A stretch of DNA of 64,000 bases from a virus (IMGVR_UViG_3300037467_003075:64001-128000); one strand, 5' to 3'; shown: positions 3,263-11,451, numbered from the stretch's first letter. Notes: generated from the sequence alone by a model not told the origin. Program-made: numbers and translations.

Positions 3263-4756
3263 TTAGGCATTAATCACACTGTAGCGTTCCTTAGTTAGTG
3301 TACTCATCATCAACTCGTATGCGCTCAGTGTTTTAAGTTTCAAGATGTTTGTGAAGTTGTTAGCAGATGCACCAGAAACCAATTGTACACCTTCGTCTGT
3401 CATCTTAGCTGGTTGGTTTCCTGTGTAAGCATTCACATTCCAGAAAACAAGACTTGGCATTTGATATCCTGCATTCTCATATCGTTGGCGAATTTCATCA
3501 AACAACTTGCTTTGATTTCTCTCGCCACCACGCGCCGAATCAAACTGCATGTCAGAAATGATGATGATGCGGTCAATCATTTCATCTTGAGAAACTTTAT
3601 TTACAATCGCTGTGTTCAAAATCAAGTCAAACACGGCTTCAATATTTGTGTTAGAACCCCAATCTGCTTTCGCCATGTTACGAACTTTCTCGCATACACC
3701 TGTACCCTGCAACTCAACCAACTGAGGTCTGCCGCTGAAAGTGATGAAGTGATTATGGAACTGTCCTCTGTTTCGTTCCGCCGCGTAGATACCAAGAGAC
3801 ACAGCAATTTGAATTGGCAAGCCACGCATAGAGCCACTCGTATCAGCTACAACGATTGAGTTATCTGCATCTTTGCCGAAGTAGTCTGGTAGGTTATTCC
3901 ATAGTGTATTGATTGCGTCTTCTTGATTAGCAGGAAGTCTACGAGTCCCAGGATTATAAACACTTCCCGTTGTCTCCATTTGGCCTGTGAACAAATCGCG
4001 AATTACTTCGTATGGATACAAAGTCTTAGTGTTTACTTTTACTTCGCCTTTCTTCAACGAGTTAAGGAAACTTGTATATCCATCAAGATCGTGATTGAAG
4101 AACGCTTGACGGTATTTGTTTCCCGCTTGCGAAGGAAGCTTACTGTACTCAATATGAGTCCATTCGTTAGCACTCATCTTAGACTCAACAATTTGAATAC
4201 GGGCGCGAAGACTAGAAAGAGACTTGCGGTATTGTCGTGGAGATAATCCAAGATACTTACGAGTAAGTTTTGCAAGTTGCTTTGTCTCGTAAGACGATGC
4301 GTTTTCAGATTTCAGCCACTTACCAAGTAACGATGGATTTTGTGAATCAATATCCTGGTAGAACTGGCGTGTAATTACATTAAAAGCTTCTGTTTCAAGT
4401 CGTGTGCCAACAAAAGCATACATATCGTCCCAACGACCAAAAACTGGAACCCAAATCAGGTTTTGTTTCATTGAATCCGTGTGATAATCTGCCAAGTAGC
4501 GAGTAAGTACACGGAATGTGTTTCTTTCACCTTGCCCTTCGCGGACATCACGAAAATAGAACAGTGCACGAAGAGCAAGTGTAGCATCTTCTGCGAACGC
4601 TTTTGTGAAGCTAGCAATTTTATTAGAATCGCTCATGCTTCGCATTGCGCCACCTTGCGCAAAAAAGTCAAGTAATGCGCTTCCTGTAGTTGCGTTTACT
4701 TTTGCGCCGTTTGCTGTGTACGCAACGTTAGCTGCATTTTTCAAGTAGTTTAACAT
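3263..4756 (-). CDS. DUF2828-family TROVE-like protein with C-terminal vWA (MIDAS) domain
   Basis: TANGA..TTGSALLDFF, FRDVREGQGER, FGRWDD, KWLKSE, VADTSGSM (MIDAS DxSxS), TNIEAVF, IISDMQFD, VFWNV. Confidence 0.85.
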   Translation of the reverse strand: MLNYLKNAANVAYTANGAKVNATTGSALLDFFAQGGAMRSMSDSNKIASFTKAFAEDATLALRALFYFRDVREGQGERNTFRVLTRYLADYHTDSMKQNLIWVPVFGRWDDMYAFVGTRLETEAFNVITRQFYQDIDSQNPSLLGKWLKSENASSYETKQLAKLTRKYLGLSPRQYRKSLSSLRARIQIVESKMSANEWTHIEYSKLPSQAGNKYRQAFFNHDLDGYTSFLNSLKKGEVKVNTKTLYPYEVIRDLFTGQMETTGSVYNPGTRRLPANQEDAINTLWNNLPDYFGKDADNSIVVADTSGSMRGLPIQIAVSLGIYAAERNRGQFHNHFITFSGRPQLVELQGTGVCEKVRNMAKADWGSNTNIEAVFDLILNTAIVNKVSQDEMIDRIIIISDMQFDSARGGERNQSKLFDEIRQRYENAGYQMPSLVFWNVNAYTGNQPAKMTDEGVQLVSGASANNFTNILKLKTLSAYELMMSTLTKERYSVINA

Positions 4757-5138: not shown

Positions 5139-5167
5139 ATTATACATGAATTATAACCTTTTGTCAA
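5139..5167 (-). promoter_or_regulatory. Sigma-A promoter driving the ACAGCA array and DUF2828 gene
   Basis: TTGACA (5167-5162), 17 bp, TATAAT (5144-5139); predicted start ~5132, just before unit 1. Confidence 0.9.
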
Positions 5168-5264
5168 GGATAAACTTTTGCAATGCTGACCAATCTTCTT
5201 TTTGCTTTAATTTCAGAATAAAATTGGCGTTTTTCTCGTATTGTTTCCTTTTCTCACTTCGCAA
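5151..5264 (-). CDS. Small 37-aa ORF (MRSEKRKQYEKNANFILKLKQKEDWSALQKFILDKRL)
   Basis: TTG start behind AAGGGGTG RBS, directly downstream of the 5302-5330 promoter. Confidence 0.45.
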   Translation of the reverse strand: MRSEKRKQYEKNANFILKLKQKEDWSALQKFILDKRL

Positions 5265-5301
5265 GTTAATCACCCCTTGCAAAAAGTTATCTTATATTTG
5301 T

Positions 5302-5330
5302 ATTATATAATAGCTTTTAAAATTTGTCAA
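5302..5330 (-). promoter_or_regulatory. Sigma-A promoter
   Basis: TTGACA (5330-5325), 17 bp, TATAAT (5307-5302). Confidence 0.85.
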
Positions 5331-5337
5331 GGATAAA

Positions 5338-6123
5338 TCAATATAGTTTTCCTTTGAGTGCCAGTTCTAATAAATCTGTAGGATAGAAAATTGTTACCGA
5401 ATTGAAATCCTGTAATATGTTGCTCATTTGCTTCTGAGTTCTCGAATCATGATATGTATTAGATGTTAAAATCTGATGTCTAACAGGAGGTATGTCATCC
5501 CTGTCCGTTTCCCTAACTCTCCAGCTGTATCTAAGCTCTATCTTCTTCGGCGGTACAGCCCTATGAATATGGTTAGAGAATGTATAAATCCTACATGGTT
5601 CAATACTCTTTGGAACTATATTTAATTCCTCATGATGATCTCCTAAGTATTTCGAAAACTCCATCCTGTCCAACTTATTAGCTATATCGCCTTTTATTTT
5701 TAGGGGATGCGCGGCAAATTCAGTTAGAGCTGTAGTGTGTGCAATAAACAGATGGACAGTCTCAATTGGCTCTATATGCTCCTTAGAGCCGTCATAATAA
5801 AAACCATCAACATGCCATTCTCTGTCATTGTCATTGTCTGAGCGTGAAGTTGTCATGGTTCTCATTTCGGGATGCACAAGGTGGACGGAAGAAAGAACAG
5901 TGACATGCTTCCTGTTATTTTTAATCGGTGTTTTTCTTAGGAGTTCTTTCTGAAACTCACTGCCATACTTCCATACCGTGTCTGCTTCTGCCACCATAAA
6001 CATAGGATGCATTAATAGCTCAGCAATATCTGGGGTTTCTATCTTTTCGCTAACTTCTTCTGGAAAACCAGGTGTAATAAACATATGCCTATGCTCTGCC
6101 TCCGCTATCAGTGTGACTTGCAA
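5338..6123 (-). CDS. Putative 2OG-Fe(II) oxygenase-like protein
   Basis: WHVDG (HxD), distal HIHRA His and RYSWRVR in the spacing expected of a double-stranded beta-helix oxygenase; overlaps the upstream gene. Confidence 0.55.
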   Translation of the reverse strand: MQVTLIAEAEHRHMFITPGFPEEVSEKIETPDIAELLMHPMFMVAEADTVWKYGSEFQKELLRKTPIKNNRKHVTVLSSVHLVHPEMRTMTTSRSDNDNDREWHVDGFYYDGSKEHIEPIETVHLFIAHTTALTEFAAHPLKIKGDIANKLDRMEFSKYLGDHHEELNIVPKSIEPCRIYTFSNHIHRAVPPKKIELRYSWRVRETDRDDIPPVRHQILTSNTYHDSRTQKQMSNILQDFNSVTIFYPTDLLELALKGKLY

Positions 6124-7025
6124 TTTTCAAGTCCATGATATTTCCACTTCTCAGTAAAAGGAAATTTTAGACCGTTAGGTGCTTCTTCTGGGAAGAAAGA
6201 ACCTTCCCTCTGAACAACATAATTTGGATAACAAGTGACTGTATTCGTCTCAATTTTAAACACAGGCGTTGTTATGTATCCAATCCCCTTTAATGCATTC
6301 CACTCTCTAGGTAGGGATAATAATTCTCTTAGGTCATCCATTTCACTTTCATAACCTAAATCAATTGCTAACTGCTCCCATTCCTTACCTACTCTAATCG
6401 ATTCTTCGCAGTCACAAGAACAAGGGATGTGTGGAATAATCTTCACACCAATGTATCGCATATCATTAGATGTTTGCCACGGCAAATCAGGTTTGAATTT
6501 AATCAAATTCTCATTGCTTCGCTTTACATATTGCAGTGATGTCGATTCCGCTTGTTGCCAGATGGGGTCAATATATCCGTTTGCCCATCTTTCATTAAAG
6601 GCTTGGATGCAACACTCTGGATAGCCAAGTAGCTTTCCTAGCTCATCATGGTTACTTATCAACGAGTTTTCAGCAAAAGATAAGGCATCTTCCCTCGTTC
6701 TGGCTAGTGAGCAGAAATAAGTGTATGGCTTGCCCTCCCTATATGGAGGATGGTAATGAGAAAATCCACTGTAGGAACCGACTCGTCTTATTGGCTGCAA
6801 AATTATTCCTTCTCTTGCGAATTTTAAAGACACCGCCGCAAAATCATCGCTGCCACTGACATGGTAAGTTGTTGCTTTCCTAAGACCATGCTTCACTGAC
6901 TCATATTCCAACACCCTATACAATTCTCTTGCGTTCTTTACCTTTTCTTCCCACTTTTGCTTAATGGAGTCACCAGCGTAAGTTACCCTTGCGACTGGGG
7001 GCATACGAAAATCAAGCAGTTTCAT
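6108..7025 (-). CDS. DUF483-like Cys/His-motif protein
   Basis: LGKLLGYPECC and HIPCSCDC motifs; translationally coupled to the radical SAM gene. Confidence 0.5.
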   Translation of the reverse strand: MKLLDFRMPPVARVTYAGDSIKQKWEEKVKNARELYRVLEYESVKHGLRKATTYHVSGSDDFAAVSLKFAREGIILQPIRRVGSYSGFSHYHPPYREGKPYTYFCSLARTREDALSFAENSLISNHDELGKLLGYPECCIQAFNERWANGYIDPIWQQAESTSLQYVKRSNENLIKFKPDLPWQTSNDMRYIGVKIIPHIPCSCDCEESIRVGKEWEQLAIDLGYESEMDDLRELLSLPREWNALKGIGYITTPVFKIETNTVTCYPNYVVQREGSFFPEEAPNGLKFPFTEKWKYHGLENCKSH

Positions 7026-8304
7026 TTACCACTTCATCACCTTTCACTGGTACAATTACAGTTCTTTTTCCCTCAAGGAAGCTGTTCCTTTGTTTTTCGA
7101 TCTCTTCCGATCTCTTGTTTTCAATCTCATCTTCAACTTTAATTGCATGATAAACAGATGGCGATTTTCCTTCTTGCATCCAACCAAGCAACCTGTTCTC
7201 AATCTTCTTAATCATTGGACTTTTTGTAAATGGAACAATTCCTTCTTCTTCCAACTTGTCTTCATAATACCCCAACAAAGCCTTTTGTGTCCTACAGTGA
7301 ATAGTCTTATTTCTAAAGTCACCTTTTTCAGATTCACCAGGACAGCTACCTCCGCAAATAGACCAGAAACGACACCCATTACATCCACCATATTCATCAG
7401 GCGTATGATAAAAACTAATATATCTAGAATAACTTGTTCCATTGGCCTTGTACCAGCCAACACCTTCTTTATTAACCCTACCGCAATTGGAAATGTCACC
7501 ATTTCCTTCAATTCCGTATACTGCTTTGGTATTTAGAGGGTCACAATTTTTCCAGTAACATGTTGCATTTCTATCATCTCCTTTAAGTAGATCAGGAATT
7601 TCATGAAATGGCTTGTATCTTAAATGTTTGTTTTCTGAGAAGAACTTTGCAAGTGTTAAGAATGCTTCTACATTTTCTTCTGGTGTCAACACATCTTCTT
7701 TGTTCGGCATTGTCTCTTCGACTTCAAGGGTGTGTATATTTCCCCCCTTTATCCCGATATCGCTGAGTTTTTCAATGAATTGGATTAGCTTAGGCAAGTT
7801 TTCTCTGCTGCCATTTTTTCTATGTAGCGTAATAATAATGCCGACAGAAATACCGTTATCAACCATTTTCTTTATATTTCTCATAATGGTTTCGGTTGCT
7901 TCTAGCGTTCTCTCTTTTTTCTCTGGTGTACCGCTTTTCCCTGCTCTTACTTCGCGCAGACTGTTTAGTTCGCCATCGCCATCAATGGACACTCCTACGC
8001 TAACCTTATATTTTTTAAATAGTTCGATATGTTCATCATCAATCAATGTTCCGTTTGTCTGTAGACCATTCTTTCCAAATCTCTCTAACCCGTACCTCCA
8101 CAGGTATTCGAGGTCTTTCTTTGGCACAAGTAATGCCTCTCCCCCGAACAAGTGAAATTCCTTTCCAACCTTTTCTATTTCAGCTATAACTTTATCAAGA
8201 TCATATTTTGATGATATATTATTGGCTAGTCTAATTGGTTCTTGATAGCAGTATAAACAACCCAAGTTACACAATTCGCCCATAAGTCTTACTTCATTAG
8301 CCAT
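7012..8304 (-). CDS. Radical SAM enzyme with SPASM domain (peptide/protein maturase type)
   Basis: CNLGCLYC (CxxxCxxC), FGGEALL, QTNGTL, VSIDG. SPASM cysteines: CYWKNC, GDISNCG, CNGCRFWSICGGSCP, IHC. Confidence 0.92.
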   Translation of the reverse strand: MANEVRLMGELCNLGCLYCYQEPIRLANNISSKYDLDKVIAEIEKVGKEFHLFGGEALLVPKKDLEYLWRYGLERFGKNGLQTNGTLIDDEHIELFKKYKVSVGVSIDGDGELNSLREVRAGKSGTPEKKERTLEATETIMRNIKKMVDNGISVGIIITLHRKNGSRENLPKLIQFIEKLSDIGIKGGNIHTLEVEETMPNKEDVLTPEENVEAFLTLAKFFSENKHLRYKPFHEIPDLLKGDDRNATCYWKNCDPLNTKAVYGIEGNGDISNCGRVNKEGVGWYKANGTSYSRYISFYHTPDEYGGCNGCRFWSICGGSCPGESEKGDFRNKTIHCRTQKALLGYYEDKLEEEGIVPFTKSPMIKKIENRLLGWMQEGKSPSVYHAIKVEDEIENKRSEEIEKQRNSFLEGKRTVIVPVKGDEVVNETA

Positions 8305-8328
8305 AGAAAAGTCATCTCCTTCCCACTG

Positions 8329-8913
8329 TTAGTTGTGTGGATTATCAGCATGGTCATTATAACCAGTGAAATCATCATAACCACCAGAATCATTGTAATC
8401 GCTATGACCGCCAGTATCATTGTAGTCAGAATGGTCATTAAAATTGGCATTGTCACTGTGATCGAAGTATACGCCACCAGATACAAAGTCGCCATAATCA
8501 GTATAGTCCCCATGTAATCCTGTGTGGTCTGCATGATCTGCGTAATCGGTATAGTCCCCATGGTCGCCATAATCACTATAATCACCATGCCCACCGAAAT
8601 CACTATAGTCACCGTGGGCATATTGACGGATTCCGCTTGCATCAATCCAATGTAGATAGCTATTGCTGGTGTCTAACCACAGACTTCCCTTGATTGCACC
8701 TGCTATTGTGCCAACCTGTATTCGTTGAAGATACCTATTTGCTCCGTTTGCATCTATGTAATGTAAATCTGCTCCTTCTACCCACAGACTACCTTTGATA
8801 GCACCAGCTGGCGACGAAACAACAGTCCCTGTATATCTCTTAGTTAATCCGCTAGGATTAATAAAACATAGGTCAGTTCCTTCGACCCATACACTACCTA
8901 TAATACCAGGCAT
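8329..8913 (-). CDS. Putative radical SAM substrate: three GSxWxxG beta-repeats followed by 22 (H/Y/F)-x-D motifs
   Basis: From H100 on: 9 HxD, 12 YxD and 1 FxD triplets in near-continuous 3-residue register; immediately upstream of the radical SAM gene. Confidence 0.8.
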   Translation of the reverse strand: MPGIIGSVWVEGTDLCFINPSGLTKRYTGTVVSSPAGAIKGSLWVEGADLHYIDANGANRYLQRIQVGTIAGAIKGSLWLDTSNSYLHWIDASGIRQYAHGDYSDFGGHGDYSDYGDHGDYTDYADHADHTGLHGDYTDYGDFVSGGVYFDHSDNANFNDHSDYNDTGGHSDYNDSGGYDDFTGYNDHADNPHN

Positions 8914-8934
8914 AAAATTCCCTCTTTAAATTAA

Positions 8935-9222
8935 CTAGTTGTTAATATTCAGTGTTATAATTTCGACCATACCGTGATCTCTGTTTGAGTACTCAACTTT
9001 ATTAAGTGATACATTTGAATTAAACAACTGCACACCGTCAATGGTCTTGACTTTCATTAAAGAGCCAGCTTGAGAAATTGCATCTCTGACTTGCTGACCA
9101 ATTGTTACATTGGTTAGGCTAACTTTGTTAATAATTAGACAACCAGTATCTCTTATTTCAAAACTAACATTTTCTGCAACATATATTTCTAGCCCATCGA
9201 TATCAATAATCGTTGTGTTCAT
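8935..9222 (-). CDS. Hypothetical protein, first gene of the radical SAM operon
   Basis: 95-aa ORF with AGAGGGAG RBS directly downstream of the 9255-9284 promoter. Confidence 0.7.
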   Translation of the reverse strand: MNTTIIDIDGLEIYVAENVSFEIRDTGCLIINKVSLTNVTIGQQVRDAISQAGSLMKVKTIDGVQLFNSNVSLNKVEYSNRDHGMVEIITLNINN

Positions 9223-9254
9223 TCATCATACTCCCTCTGTTATATTATTATAAT

Positions 9255-9284
9255 ATTATATCAAAACACGCTATGATTTGTCAA
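9255..9284 (-). promoter_or_regulatory. Sigma-A promoter (extended -10) of the radical SAM operon
   Basis: TTGACA (9284-9279), 18 bp, TG-A-TATAAT (9260-9255). Confidence 0.8.
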
Positions 9285-9288
9285 GGAA

Positions 9289-10089
9289 TCATGATAGTTT
9301 CATAAGGATGTTGTCGATATAATCATGGGCAAAAATCTCATCTAACTTGATATGCTTCTCTTGTCCGTTAGATTGGATTAGATAGAACAGTGCGCCATTT
9401 GAAGCGAAACCAGACAGGAGTTCGTAAAGTTTTTCTGTATCAATTCCTAACATAGTCTTATTCAATTCAAATACAACATATTTAATTACCTTATTGTCTA
9501 ACAATTGTTTTGCGCCAGACAGGACTTTGTACTCCGCACCCTCGACATCCACTTTTAAGATTTCGATTTTTTCTGGCATATTAAGAGACGATAGTGCAAC
9601 AGAAGTTACTGTGACGGTTTCAAATTCATCGGTTCCAAACTGACTCTTATATAAGCTAGAATGTTCCATGATTGAACTATTGCCCTGATATTTAGTTGAT
9701 ACATTGAATGTTATTTCTGTTAGATGCTCATTCGATACGGCATATGAAAGAGGCTGCGCAATCTCATGGAGCTGGCTTAAATAAATATTTTCCTTTAGTA
9801 GCTCCATGACTTTAGGGTTTGCTTCGAATGCGTATACGCTGCCACTTTTCCCGACAAGGCAAGAAAATAGAACAGTGAAATACCCAATGTTTGCGCCGAC
9901 ATCAATAATGTTTTTTCCCACAAGATCATTCTTCTTGTTAATCAACCAATTTGTAAATCCAGTTTCGATAACGCCATCTACCATGAGTGTAGGCATCAAA
10001 CTCATATCATCACAAGAAGCAATAAGTCTCATGCCCCATGCGGTCTTAATTAACATTCTGTTATTTCCTATGTATGTTCCATAAAACAC
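9289..10089 (-). CDS. FkbM-family SAM-dependent methyltransferase
   Basis: IIDVGANIGYFT, AFEANP, KVDVEGAEYKVLSGA. Confidence 0.88.
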   Translation of the reverse strand: MFYGTYIGNNRMLIKTAWGMRLIASCDDMSLMPTLMVDGVIETGFTNWLINKKNDLVGKNIIDVGANIGYFTVLFSCLVGKSGSVYAFEANPKVMELLKENIYLSQLHEIAQPLSYAVSNEHLTEITFNVSTKYQGNSSIMEHSSLYKSQFGTDEFETVTVTSVALSSLNMPEKIEILKVDVEGAEYKVLSGAKQLLDNKVIKYVVFELNKTMLGIDTEKLYELLSGFASNGALFYLIQSNGQEKHIKLDEIFAHDYIDNILMKLS

Positions 10090-10878
10090 TTATAGCTCAC
10101 CAACCTTAAAGTGGTATTTTTCCCCCCTGATTGCAATTCCTAATTCAGATTCCTTGATCTTGTCAACATAATCTCCAAGGTCATCGCCATAATGCATAAT
10201 ATAGATTTTTTCTTTAAAAGAATCTTCCAAATCGATTAATTGATCTAGTGATGCATGCACTTGACCATCGTAACTGAATAGCTGGCAATCGTGAAAAACT
10301 GCTTGGCAATCTTCGCTAAAACCAATCTCGATTAGGTCACGGTTTAGCAAGCTATCGCCAGAATAAATAATAAAGTCTGTTTCACCAATAATTAGCCCGT
10401 ATGATTTCTTATTCTTAATGTGGTTGGTGGGAAAAACAGAGAACATAACTCCGTTAAAGAAGAAGTGTTGTGCCTCCCTGTCAACTACATGATAGGTAAA
10501 GTAGTCATCGAATGTCATAAGGCGATCTAAATCTGCATTAATCATCGTTCCTTTTAGTACTTTATCCCATAGGTCAGTCTTAATCTTAGGATTAGGGAAA
10601 ATTAAGTGCGGTTTTTTCTTAAGCATATATCTTCCGTAGTATCCTGCTTCCTCAAGGCCAAAGACATGATCTCCATGTAGATGCGTAATAAAGATAGCGT
10701 CGATATCACCAAAAGTATATCCATGCTGGAAAAGATCGTCTGGCGTAGTGCGACCACAGTCGATTAGTAGCTTTTTTATCGTACCGTTATTCTCAACAAA
10801 AACGAGTGCGCTTGTATTACCAAATCTTTTTGAAAATGCGCTACCTGTTCCCATAAATTGAATTGTAATGTTAGCCAT
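10090..10878 (-). CDS. apyc1: Apyc1-like MBL-fold cyclic-nucleotide phosphodiesterase (anti-Pycsar)
   Basis: GTGSAFSK, LLIDCG, ITHLHGDH, GLEE, LWDKVLKG, YSGD, FHDCQ, VHASLDQL and MHYGD match the motif series I recall for phage Apyc1. Likely start ATG 10878. Confidence 0.75.
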   Translation of the reverse strand: MANITIQFMGTGSAFSKRFGNTSALVFVENNGTIKKLLIDCGRTTPDDLFQHGYTFGDIDAIFITHLHGDHVFGLEEAGYYGRYMLKKKPHLIFPNPKIKTDLWDKVLKGTMINADLDRLMTFDDYFTYHVVDREAQHFFFNGVMFSVFPTNHIKNKKSYGLIIGETDFIIYSGDSLLNRDLIEIGFSEDCQAVFHDCQLFSYDGQVHASLDQLIDLEDSFKEKIYIMHYGDDLGDYVDKIKESELGIAIRGEKYHFKVGEL

Positions 10879-10883
10879 TTTAA

Positions 10884-10970
10884 TCACTTCCCATACGCTT
10901 TTTTATATCCATCTACTTCTTCTGTCTTGGCTTTTCGTCTAAATATAGCATTAAGCAATCTCTTAAGCAT
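10884..10970 (-). CDS. Possible 28-aa ORF
   Basis: ATG at 10970 behind GGTGGGTGG; fills the gap between flanking genes with coupled overlaps. Confidence 0.35.
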   Translation of the reverse strand: MLKRLLNAIFRRKAKTEEVDGYKKAYGK

Positions 10971-11451
10971 TCTTACCACCCACCTTACTTCCCCAAAAAT
11001 CCACAATATCAACAAATCCATCCAGGTCATCAAGACTGTCAGGTTTAAGTATAATATTCCACTCATTTGCGTACTTTTGTTTTTTCGGCTCGAAATAAAA
11101 ATTCTGTTGCACCTTGATATCCAATGTTTTACTGTAGTATCCTAGCTTGAGAATGTATCCTACAAATTCACTGAAAATTCCTTTGTGATACGGCAGTATA
11201 TTTATGACAATAGTCTTACCCATATCTTCCGTAGTAAACTTTTCAACATGACATACTGTATCTTCTAGTGACTCAATTATCCTCTTCTTATATCCTGAAT
11301 ACTTTAACAGGAACTTTTGTTTGTTTTCGTCTTCGTAATCCTCATAAAACCCGAATCCGTCACAATATCCACAGTCAGTCCAGTTAATTCCGTCTGACTT
11401 CCATCCACCTTTGCCCCCGCAAACATTACAGACAACATGATTATTTTCCAT
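10963..11451 (-). CDS. Hypothetical protein with N-terminal CxxCxGxG zinc-binding repeats
   Basis: CNVCGGKGG...CGYCDGFG. Confidence 0.65.
   Translation of the reverse strand: MENNHVVCNVCGGKGGWKSDGINWTDCGYCDGFGFYEDYEDENKQKFLLKYSGYKKRIIESLEDTVCHVEKFTTEDMGKTIVINILPYHKGIFSEFVGYILKLGYYSKTLDIKVQQNFYFEPKKQKYANEWNIILKPDSLDDLDGFVDIVDFWGSKVGGKNA

Follow-up and report, generated by a model that had tools for sequence, protein, structure and literature searches.

We analysed a stretch of 64,000 nucleotides (IMGVR_UViG_3300037467_003075:64001-128000, hereafter the window), which is part of a 157,825-bp virus record, and focused on a five-gene operon in which a radical S-adenosylmethionine (SAM) enzyme is paired with a protein that consists in large part of aromatic-x-Asp triplets. 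The five open reading frames (ORFs) all lie on the minus strand, between positions 9222 and 5338, and are separated by intergenic gaps of 21 and 24 nt or overlap by 14 and 16 nt. In the order of transcription, they encode a 95-aa protein (8935-9222, with a ribosome-binding site ahead of the ATG), a 194-aa repeat protein (8329-8913), a 430-aa radical SAM/SPASM enzyme (7012-8304), a 305-aa DUF483 protein (6108-7025), and a 261-aa putative oxygenase-like protein (5338-6123, with an alternative ATG start at 6084). Upstream of the first gene, at 9255-9284 and on the same strand, is a sigma-A type promoter whose TTGACA and TATAAT elements, 18 nt apart and with a TG extension, match the consensus at 12 of 12 positions. 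No convincing terminator was found within the five-gene unit, and the next perfect sigma-A promoter (5330-5302), just past the last gene, begins the following unit. The layout given by the original prediction, which was made from the sequence alone, is thus confirmed, i.e., one sigma-A promoter ahead of five closely spaced or overlapping genes. A megablast search of phage records with the operon DNA returned no match.

The 194-aa protein consists of an N-terminal domain (8617-8913) followed by the aromatic-x-Asp array (residues 100-190, 8344-8616), which is the presumed substrate region. The array contains 22 triplets, of which 9 are HxD, 12 are YxD, and 1 is FxD. These counts are as predicted; the strict register that had been claimed for them is not, as one +1 shift divides the triplets into two blocks (residues 100-129 and 134-190), each of them in phase. 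Over 200,000 random reorderings of the 95 residues of the array, 6.7 triplets were obtained on average and never more than 16, compared with the 22 observed, and no ORF elsewhere in the 157.8-kb genome has more than 5 triplets per 60 aa. At the DNA level, the array has only one imperfect tandem repeat (27 nt, 2.2 copies), which rules out recent slippage as its origin and indicates that the motif is kept by selection on the protein. The region contains 23 Asp residues and no Lys or Arg (net charge about -23), is predicted to be disordered in the AlphaFold2 (AF2) model of the unmodified monomer, and ends with H-x-D-x-P, a motif found without change in 13 homologues. The protein lacks both a signal peptide and a PHROG match, and an NCBIfam search found no family for any of the repeat proteins or short HxD peptides described here.

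The 430-aa enzyme matches the radical SAM family of Pfam (PF04055, E value 1.1e-16, 61.8 bits against a cutoff of 29.5) and phrog_1802 (3e-35). Its CxxxCxxC motif (C12, C16, and C19) is invariant in 13 orthologues, and so are the cysteines of a SPASM domain with two auxiliary 4Fe-4S clusters, for which we used the pattern C-x(9-15)-G-x4-C ... C-x2-C-x5-C-x3-C ... C; these are C254-x14-G269-x4-C274, C308-x2-C311-x5-C317-x3-C321, and C337, plus C249. The Pfam SPASM model gave no match at E ≤ 0.1; the region is covered by a full-length alignment to the anaerobic sulfatase-maturating enzyme (anSME). The family score and the cysteine pattern uphold the predicted radical SAM/SPASM assignment. A profile search of the PDB ranked anSME first (4k36, 1.6e-20, full length), followed by the triceptide synthase ChlB (9gm3, 6.9e-16). 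The best NCBIfam matches were the cyclophane former AmcB, PapB, DynA, YhhB, DarW, and anSME, all far below their cutoffs, and the 13 orthologues gave the same picture. The models of the triceptide maturases XyeB (TIGR04496), GrrM/OscB (TIGR04261), FxsB (TIGR04269), YhhB (NF041707), and AmcB (NF041718) scored 46-80 bits against cutoffs of 310-450, and the anSME model scored 58-80 bits against a cutoff of 349. HxsB and HxsC were not among the 25 best NCBIfam families for the window enzyme. The enzyme had been likened to XyeB, GrrM, and FxsB, and with such scores it belongs to none of these families; its nearest families (anSME, AmcB, DynA, PapB, and YhhB) modify proteins or peptides and are not cofactor enzymes. 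Collectively, these comparisons indicate that it represents a separate family in the group of SPASM enzymes that modify proteins or peptides, and not a cofactor enzyme. A predicted complex of the enzyme (with its clusters and SAM) and the repeat tail had a score of 0.01, which counts neither for nor against binding.

The 305-aa protein had been described as a DUF483-like protein with Cys motifs. It matches PF04467 (DUF483) at 30.1 bits against a cutoff of 25, its homologue in locus L005 scores 27.5 bits, and the cysteines in its GYPxCC and HLPCSFxC motifs are conserved, in agreement with that description. The radical SAM and DUF483 genes are adjacent or fused in every orthologous locus with flanking sequence. 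The AF2 model of the DUF483 protein is of high confidence (predicted local distance difference test, pLDDT, 90.3). Foldseek against the PDB gave no match for it at E ≤ 0.001, and VIA-align returned only 2guk, a structure of unknown function (Z 5.6), and the cysteine methyltransferase NleE (Z 4.4), both too weak for a fold assignment. Its structural neighbours in the AlphaFold database were DUF483 proteins and fusions of a radical SAM-SPASM enzyme to DUF483, and many DUF483 homologues carry a fused C-terminal class I SAM methyltransferase. With three to four conserved cysteines, DUF483 probably serves as a metal-binding subunit for docking or as a scaffold, or else provides a second tailoring activity.

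The comparison of related loci indicates that the repeat protein, the SPASM radical SAM enzyme, and the DUF483 protein are the conserved core of the operon. A scan of viral contigs recovered 17 orthologous loci, all with the radical SAM and DUF483 genes. Taking at least 12 triplets per 60 aa as the threshold for a repeat ORF, a dense aromatic-x-Asp ORF is present in all of them but L004, a short contig in which the radical SAM enzyme itself has an HxD tail; none of 62 control loci (715 kb) reaches this density. A second scan, with one genome per species, recovered 28 orthologous loci, and repeat ORFs were found in 20 of these versus 3 of 114 controls, all three being chance cases of low complexity. 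The 28 loci are from Paenibacillaceae, cyanobacteria, Acidobacteriota, Planctomycetota, Chloroflexota, Bacteroidota, Actinomycetota, Myxococcota, Proteobacteria, one haloarchaeon, and one nanohaloarchaeon, and those closest to the window are from Chengkuizengella and Paenibacillus. Repeat ORFs are therefore linked to the enzymes in every viral locus with enough flank and in most genome loci, which strongly supports the earlier proposal that the radical SAM enzyme acts on the repeat protein. On this comparative evidence, we regard the repeat protein as very probably the substrate of the radical SAM/DUF483 pair.

The layout is also recognizable in Thermus phages. In Cumys and phiMa, which can be grown on Thermus thermophilus HB8, baseplate and tail-collar-fibre genes are followed by a gene for a 97-aa protein, a gene for a 343-aa protein, the radical SAM gene (45-47% identity to that of the window at the protein level), and the DUF483 gene (38-40%). 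The triple N-terminal repeat of the window protein recurs in the 343-aa protein, where approximately 230 residues of HxD units come after it, and a third Thermus phage, phiLo, has the radical SAM enzyme, DUF483, and an HxD protein nearby. The radical SAM enzymes of the Thermus phages and of L004 (loci L001-L004) end with short HxD/YxD tails of their own, with up to 10 units in phiLo (e.g., L003:5001-6449), which might be self-substrates, docking elements, or regulators. The full trio was also found in a nanohaloarchaeal metagenome-assembled genome (L105:687-4089) and in Halorubellus (L107:5701-9264), where the N-terminal domain of the repeat protein is 36-49% identical to that of the window, so the module spans the divide between bacteria and archaea. 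In a 188-kb metagenomic contig (L163:1143-7893), two radical SAM, two DUF483, and two oxygenase-like genes surround a single repeat protein gene, whose product has the same N-terminal domain and His-x-Asn in place of His-x-Asp. Several bacterial loci encode short HxD peptides with Arg-rich, hydrophobic N-termini (L087:9216-10022, L092:9763-10197, and L097:6106-6558 on the minus strand); L087 has two tandem copies, placed between the DUF483 gene and the genes for PqqD, P-loop, and NTP_transf_5 proteins, an arrangement that looks like a chromosomal cluster for a peptide synthesized ribosomally and modified post-translationally (RiPP).

The triplets obey a strict grammar across the family. In the repeat regions of 13 homologues, 453 of 500 Asp residues (91%) have an aromatic residue at position -2 (390 His, 49 Tyr, 13 Phe, and 1 Trp), and the residue at +2 of the aromatic is Asp in 453 cases, Asn in 21, and Glu in 3. 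The units are separated by zero to two variable residues. A unit of Asp followed by an aromatic residue (i, i+1) was considered and rejected, as most homologues have spacers of one or two residues and the aromatic-x-Asp pairing is kept across them. YxD and His-x-X are proven triceptide motifs, in which YxdB joins the Tyr C3 to the Asp C-beta, and HaaB, HtkB, and YhhB join the His C2 to a C-beta (PMC11002830, PMC11499958). Triceptide-type substrates are made up of repeated units of the form aromatic(1)-X(2)-X(3), and the window protein has 22 of these. By analogy, the radical SAM enzyme would abstract a hydrogen from the beta-carbon of each Asp and link this carbon to the ring of the His or Tyr at position -2, and the acidic tail of the 194-aa protein would become a chain of as many as 22 small rings. 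DUF483, elsewhere fused to the radical SAM enzyme, would work with it. That the modification is a ring-to-C-beta cyclophane falls, in our judgement, just short of an even chance.

In the N-terminal domain of the repeat protein (residues 1-99), a G-S-x-W-(V/I)-E-G...Y-I-D unit, the last part of which reads YID..G in the window, occurs three times, and the G-S-x-W of all three copies is invariant in 13 homologues. The domain is predicted to adopt an all-beta, three-repeat fold (AF2 pLDDT approximately 90 over residues 1-100), and in a viral structure library its sole match was the phiMa homologue. With the domain as query, an exhaustive profile search collected 558 clusters at 50% identity, and about two-thirds of the longer members carry aromatic-x-Asp-type repeats, with variants that include arrays of His-x-Asn, arrays with both D and N, and a single Phe-x-Asn array (P0089, for which a look-up of the gene context gave no record). 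The domain is often fused to other parts (e.g., in P0167), among them LamG, distal globular domains, and N-terminal extensions that, in our own reading of the sequences, resemble the N-termini of tail fibres; a PHROG search of these extensions gave no match. We considered the domain as a leader required by the radical SAM enzyme and rejected this, as large tail proteins and short bacterial peptides combine the repeat and the enzymes without it; because it is absent from both, the domain is not the recognition handle of the enzymes. It is also combined with Cys-rich C-terminal domains lacking aromatic-x-Asp units (P0026, P0030, P0038, P0052, and P0078), and in the one usable gene context of this form, the other contigs being too short for a judgement, there is no radical SAM gene directly downstream.

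The related loci further revealed a link to phage tails that the original prediction had missed. The 1,186-aa central tail fibre J-type protein of L008 (phrog_5616, 6e-57; Pfam Phage-tail_3, PF13550) contains a 26-unit repeat with another globular domain after it; L016 has a repeat of 86 units at the end of a protein encoded after the tape measure and minor tail genes; and in L020, the repeat ends a LamG virion protein. Small repeat proteins like that of the window follow tail-fibre/host-specificity or baseplate genes in L009, L010, L013, Cumys, and phiMa. The module is usually found at the end of tail gene blocks, and the repeat forms part of tail-fibre or J-type proteins in other phages, a connection that is new here. 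At the level of the family, the modified repeat would then be a building block of the fibres by which phages recognize their hosts. We therefore favour a phage-borne protein-maturation module, consisting of a repeat substrate, a SPASM radical SAM enzyme, and DUF483, in which the modified repeat serves as fibre building block, a reading that we hold to be evenly poised. The 194-aa protein of the window, with its lectin-like N-terminal domain, would most likely be a stand-alone fibre-type or adhesin accessory made from an early-type promoter.

Several observations weigh against this reading. The radical SAM enzyme is as close to anSME as to the triceptide models, all of which it matches only at 46-80 bits (cutoffs 310-450), so that the reaction is not assignable from sequence. 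The role of DUF483 is a guess, given that its model matches no known fold. In 8 of the 28 genome loci, 3 of them on short contigs, there is no repeat ORF within 7 kb. The best matches of the N-terminal domain in a PDB fold search, three-fold beta-prism II lectins, are weak (Z ≤ 4.4). Finally, the window operon is one of five units with sigma-A promoters at 2.3-13 kb, outside the structural block, which lacks such promoters. Perfect sigma-A consensus matches number 8 in the window versus 0.13 expected; 5 of the 8 are on the minus strand at 2.3-13 kb, and none is in the structural block at 14-55 kb. The neighbours of the operon are genes for an Apyc1-like hydrolase, an FkbM methyltransferase, and a Ro60-like protein, and a tRNA array. 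Because the operon lies outside the structural block and beside tRNA, Ro60-like, and anti-defence genes, a role in the virion is weaker for the window copy than for the family, and we lean somewhat away from the view that this copy is virion-associated.

The window copy may instead be an early, non-virion factor. According to this alternative, the modified protein would act inside the cell or be released, for example as an acidic decoy, a scavenger of metal, or a factor that counters defence, and its host-type consensus promoter, its neighbourhood of Apyc1-like and Ro60-like genes and a tRNA array apart from the late structural block, and the charge of its Lys- and Arg-free tail are all in line with such a function. 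The protein lacks a signal peptide, however, and orthologues of the same architecture either end tail modules or are fused to tail-fibre N-termini or LamG, and we consider this alternative possible but on the unlikely side.

With regard to the chemistry, the radical SAM enzyme and DUF483 could act on the repeat by a different radical reaction, such as C-alpha epimerization, beta-hydroxylation or other oxidation of Asp, formation of a C-O or C-N bond, or methylation in concert with the fused methyltransferase; the aromatic residue would then be a recognition element and not a cross-link partner. The enzyme is as near to anSME, which oxidizes C-beta, and to DynA, DarW, and PapB as to the cyclophane formers; many DUF483 partners carry a class I methyltransferase domain; and an oxygenase-like gene joins the set in three lineages. 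Against this, the strict i/i+2 pairing of H, Y, F, or W with Asp or Asn, and almost never Glu, is the grammar of triceptides, and epimerases and hydroxylases usually do not need a fixed aromatic neighbour. Taking both sides into account, we judge a different radical chemistry to be distinctly unlikely.

A third alternative is that the His/Asp repeats are metal-binding fibre motifs and that the radical SAM enzyme and DUF483 have another task, e.g., in making a cofactor or in helping assembly. The tip of the long tail fibre of phage T4 has iron-binding His-x-His motifs, and the repeat region is likewise rich in His and Asp, very acidic, and found in tail-fibre proteins. However, Tyr outnumbers His in the window (12 versus 9), Phe and Trp occupy the same position, some variants have Asn for Asp, the Phe-x-Asn variant is devoid of metal ligands, Glu hardly ever takes the place of Asp, and the spacing of the units is variable, with no fixed structural period; nor would metal binding explain why the enzymes accompany the repeat in secreted bacterial peptides and archaeal loci. 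The interchange of His, Tyr, and Phe, the tolerance of Asn, and the exclusion of Glu are hard to reconcile with metal binding and fit a reaction for which the C-H of an aromatic ring and a beta-methylene must lie a fixed distance apart. We infer that triceptide-type ring-to-C-beta cross-linking fits this grammar better, and metal binding appears improbable. Least of all do we credit the idea that the two enzymes modify DNA or a nucleotide and that the repeat protein is an unrelated neighbour, since, although homologues occur near deazapurine DNA-modification genes in some cyanobacteria (PMC11437467) and an FkbM methyltransferase gene lies just upstream in the window, the repeat gene accompanies the enzymes in phages of Thermus and Firmicutes, in many other bacterial phyla, and in haloarchaea, sometimes as a tail of the enzyme, peptides or proteins are the substrates of all the nearest enzyme families, and the bacterial versions lie beside PqqD peptide-binding proteins.

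The remaining two genes of the operon are outside the conserved core. The original prediction had treated all five genes as one system; this does not hold, as only three are conserved, the 261-aa gene recurs in two other lineages, and the 95-aa gene recurs in none. The 261-aa protein belongs to phrog_1843 (function unknown) and had been called an HxD...H oxygenase-like protein. Its W-H-x-D (H104-x-D106), H185/H187, R198, and R202 are invariant in four homologues, which supports the HxD...H...R pattern; the oxygenase assignment is a lead, as no match was found by hidden Markov model (HMM), Pfam, or PDB sequence and profile searches, and the structural neighbours in the Atlas (PhyH, TauD, JmjC, and 2OG-FeII clusters) have template modelling (TM) scores of only 0.41-0.53. 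Enzymes of the 2-oxoglutarate/Fe(II) class have a double-stranded beta-helix fold, an H-x-D...H triad that binds iron, and a basic residue for 2-oxoglutarate. We tentatively regard the 261-aa protein, from its conserved residues and these model-based neighbours, as 2-oxoglutarate/Fe(II) oxygenase-like. Homologues lie in the same cassette in Chengkuizengella (L083, 48% identity) and, in two copies, in L163 (approximately 40%), and a tblastn search and a viral-contig scan with the 261-aa protein gave no match. The gene is a lineage-specific accessory that is common to two other low-GC lineages, and its product would be an extra tailoring enzyme, possibly a hydroxylase. The 95-aa protein has no homologue in any related locus and no PHROG match; its Atlas neighbours are tail-type folds (Dit-like, gpD, Vgr, and Pvc) with TM scores of 0.55-0.70, which is weak for so short a protein and too weak to decide on a virion role.

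Several genes around the operon are also of note. The FkbM-family methyltransferase gene (9289-10089, minus strand) ends 5 nt short of the operon promoter. A functional link to the module is possible, given that methyltransferases are fused to DUF483 elsewhere, although those are of class I and differ from the FkbM enzyme. Two genes upstream of the operon (10090-10887, minus strand) is the gene for a 265-aa protein of the metallo-beta-lactamase fold, which matches the Pfam family Anti-Pycsar Apyc1 (144.5 bits against a cutoff of 50) and is likely an anti-defence protein that degrades cyclic nucleotides. Farther upstream (10963-11451, minus strand) is the gene for a 162-aa protein with an N-terminal DnaJ-like CxxCxGxG zinc-finger motif (weak Pfam match, E 0.035). 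Directly downstream of the operon (5139-5330 and 3263-4756, minus strand), two more perfect sigma-A promoters point towards a DUF2828/DUF7788 gene, which is Ro60-like and matches phrog_850, annotated as 'RNA-binding'.

Among known systems, the triceptide systems (YxdB, HaaB, HtkB, YhhB, ChlB, XyeB, GrrM/OscB, and FxsB) are the most similar, in that they too pair a SPASM radical SAM enzyme with a substrate of repeated aromatic-X-X3 units, X3 frequently being Asp or Asn. The substrates of the present module are proteins of 194 to approximately 1,200 aa with 22-86 units, however, whereas those of triceptide systems are short peptides; DUF483 is obligate, the setting is that of phages and tail fibres, and no leader or RiPP recognition element is evident in the phage versions. 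By analogy, the module would work like a triceptide system and belong to no defined maturase family. It had been predicted that no phage system with this layout has been described, and this is true in part. An 'rSAM module' with orthologous genes in the same order (unknown protein, radical SAM enzyme, DUF483) was noted in Cumys and phiMa, and DNA modification was proposed for it (Kolesnik et al., 2024, Viruses 16:1410; PMC11437467), without mention of the repeat or a reading as protein modification. The window version differs from the Thermus module in that its units are mostly Tyr and are placed back to back, an oxygenase-like gene is added, and the operon lies outside the tail block. In the HXS antiphage system, the repeat protein HxsA is matured by the radical SAM enzymes HxsB and HxsC (PMC13128918), and here too a protein, not a peptide, with repeats of His-x-small residue is the substrate. 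HXS is a bacterial defence system with two radical SAM enzymes, HxsD, no DUF483, and five HxS repeats, whereas the window operon has one radical SAM enzyme and an aromatic-x-Asp motif, and members of its family have dozens of HxD units. The enzyme anSME (4k36) shares the SPASM architecture with two auxiliary clusters and has a protein substrate, in which it acts on a residue's C-beta, but the window module has no sulfatase and no C/S-x-P-x-R motif. A literature search found no paper on HxD repeats with radical SAM enzymes or on tail fibres modified by such enzymes.

To our knowledge, cross-links made by radical SAM enzymes have been described chiefly in small secreted peptides. In the present module, their motif grammar is found at the scale of proteins, with 22-86 units, inside the host-recognition proteins of phages, and the enzymes are carried by the phages themselves. 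If the maturation of the repeat by the radical SAM enzyme and DUF483 is true, it would bring a new post-translational chemistry into virion assembly and explain an orphan gene trio that extends over 558 clusters of the N-terminal domain, more than 10 bacterial phyla, and haloarchaeal and nanohaloarchaeal assemblies; it would also give DUF483 its first function and provide very repetitive natural substrates for enzyme engineering. In its boldest form, which is speculative and which we think unlikely to hold in full, phages of bacteria and archaea would staple dozens of His/Tyr-x-Asp units of their tail fibres into C-C linked rings, using their own radical SAM enzyme and a new-fold DUF483, to form a 'poly-cyclophane' shaft or linker, of which the window copy would be a free-standing version. 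Such a stapled fibre would be the first virion structural protein that is enzymatically cross-linked through C-C bonds, and a new kind of protein material.

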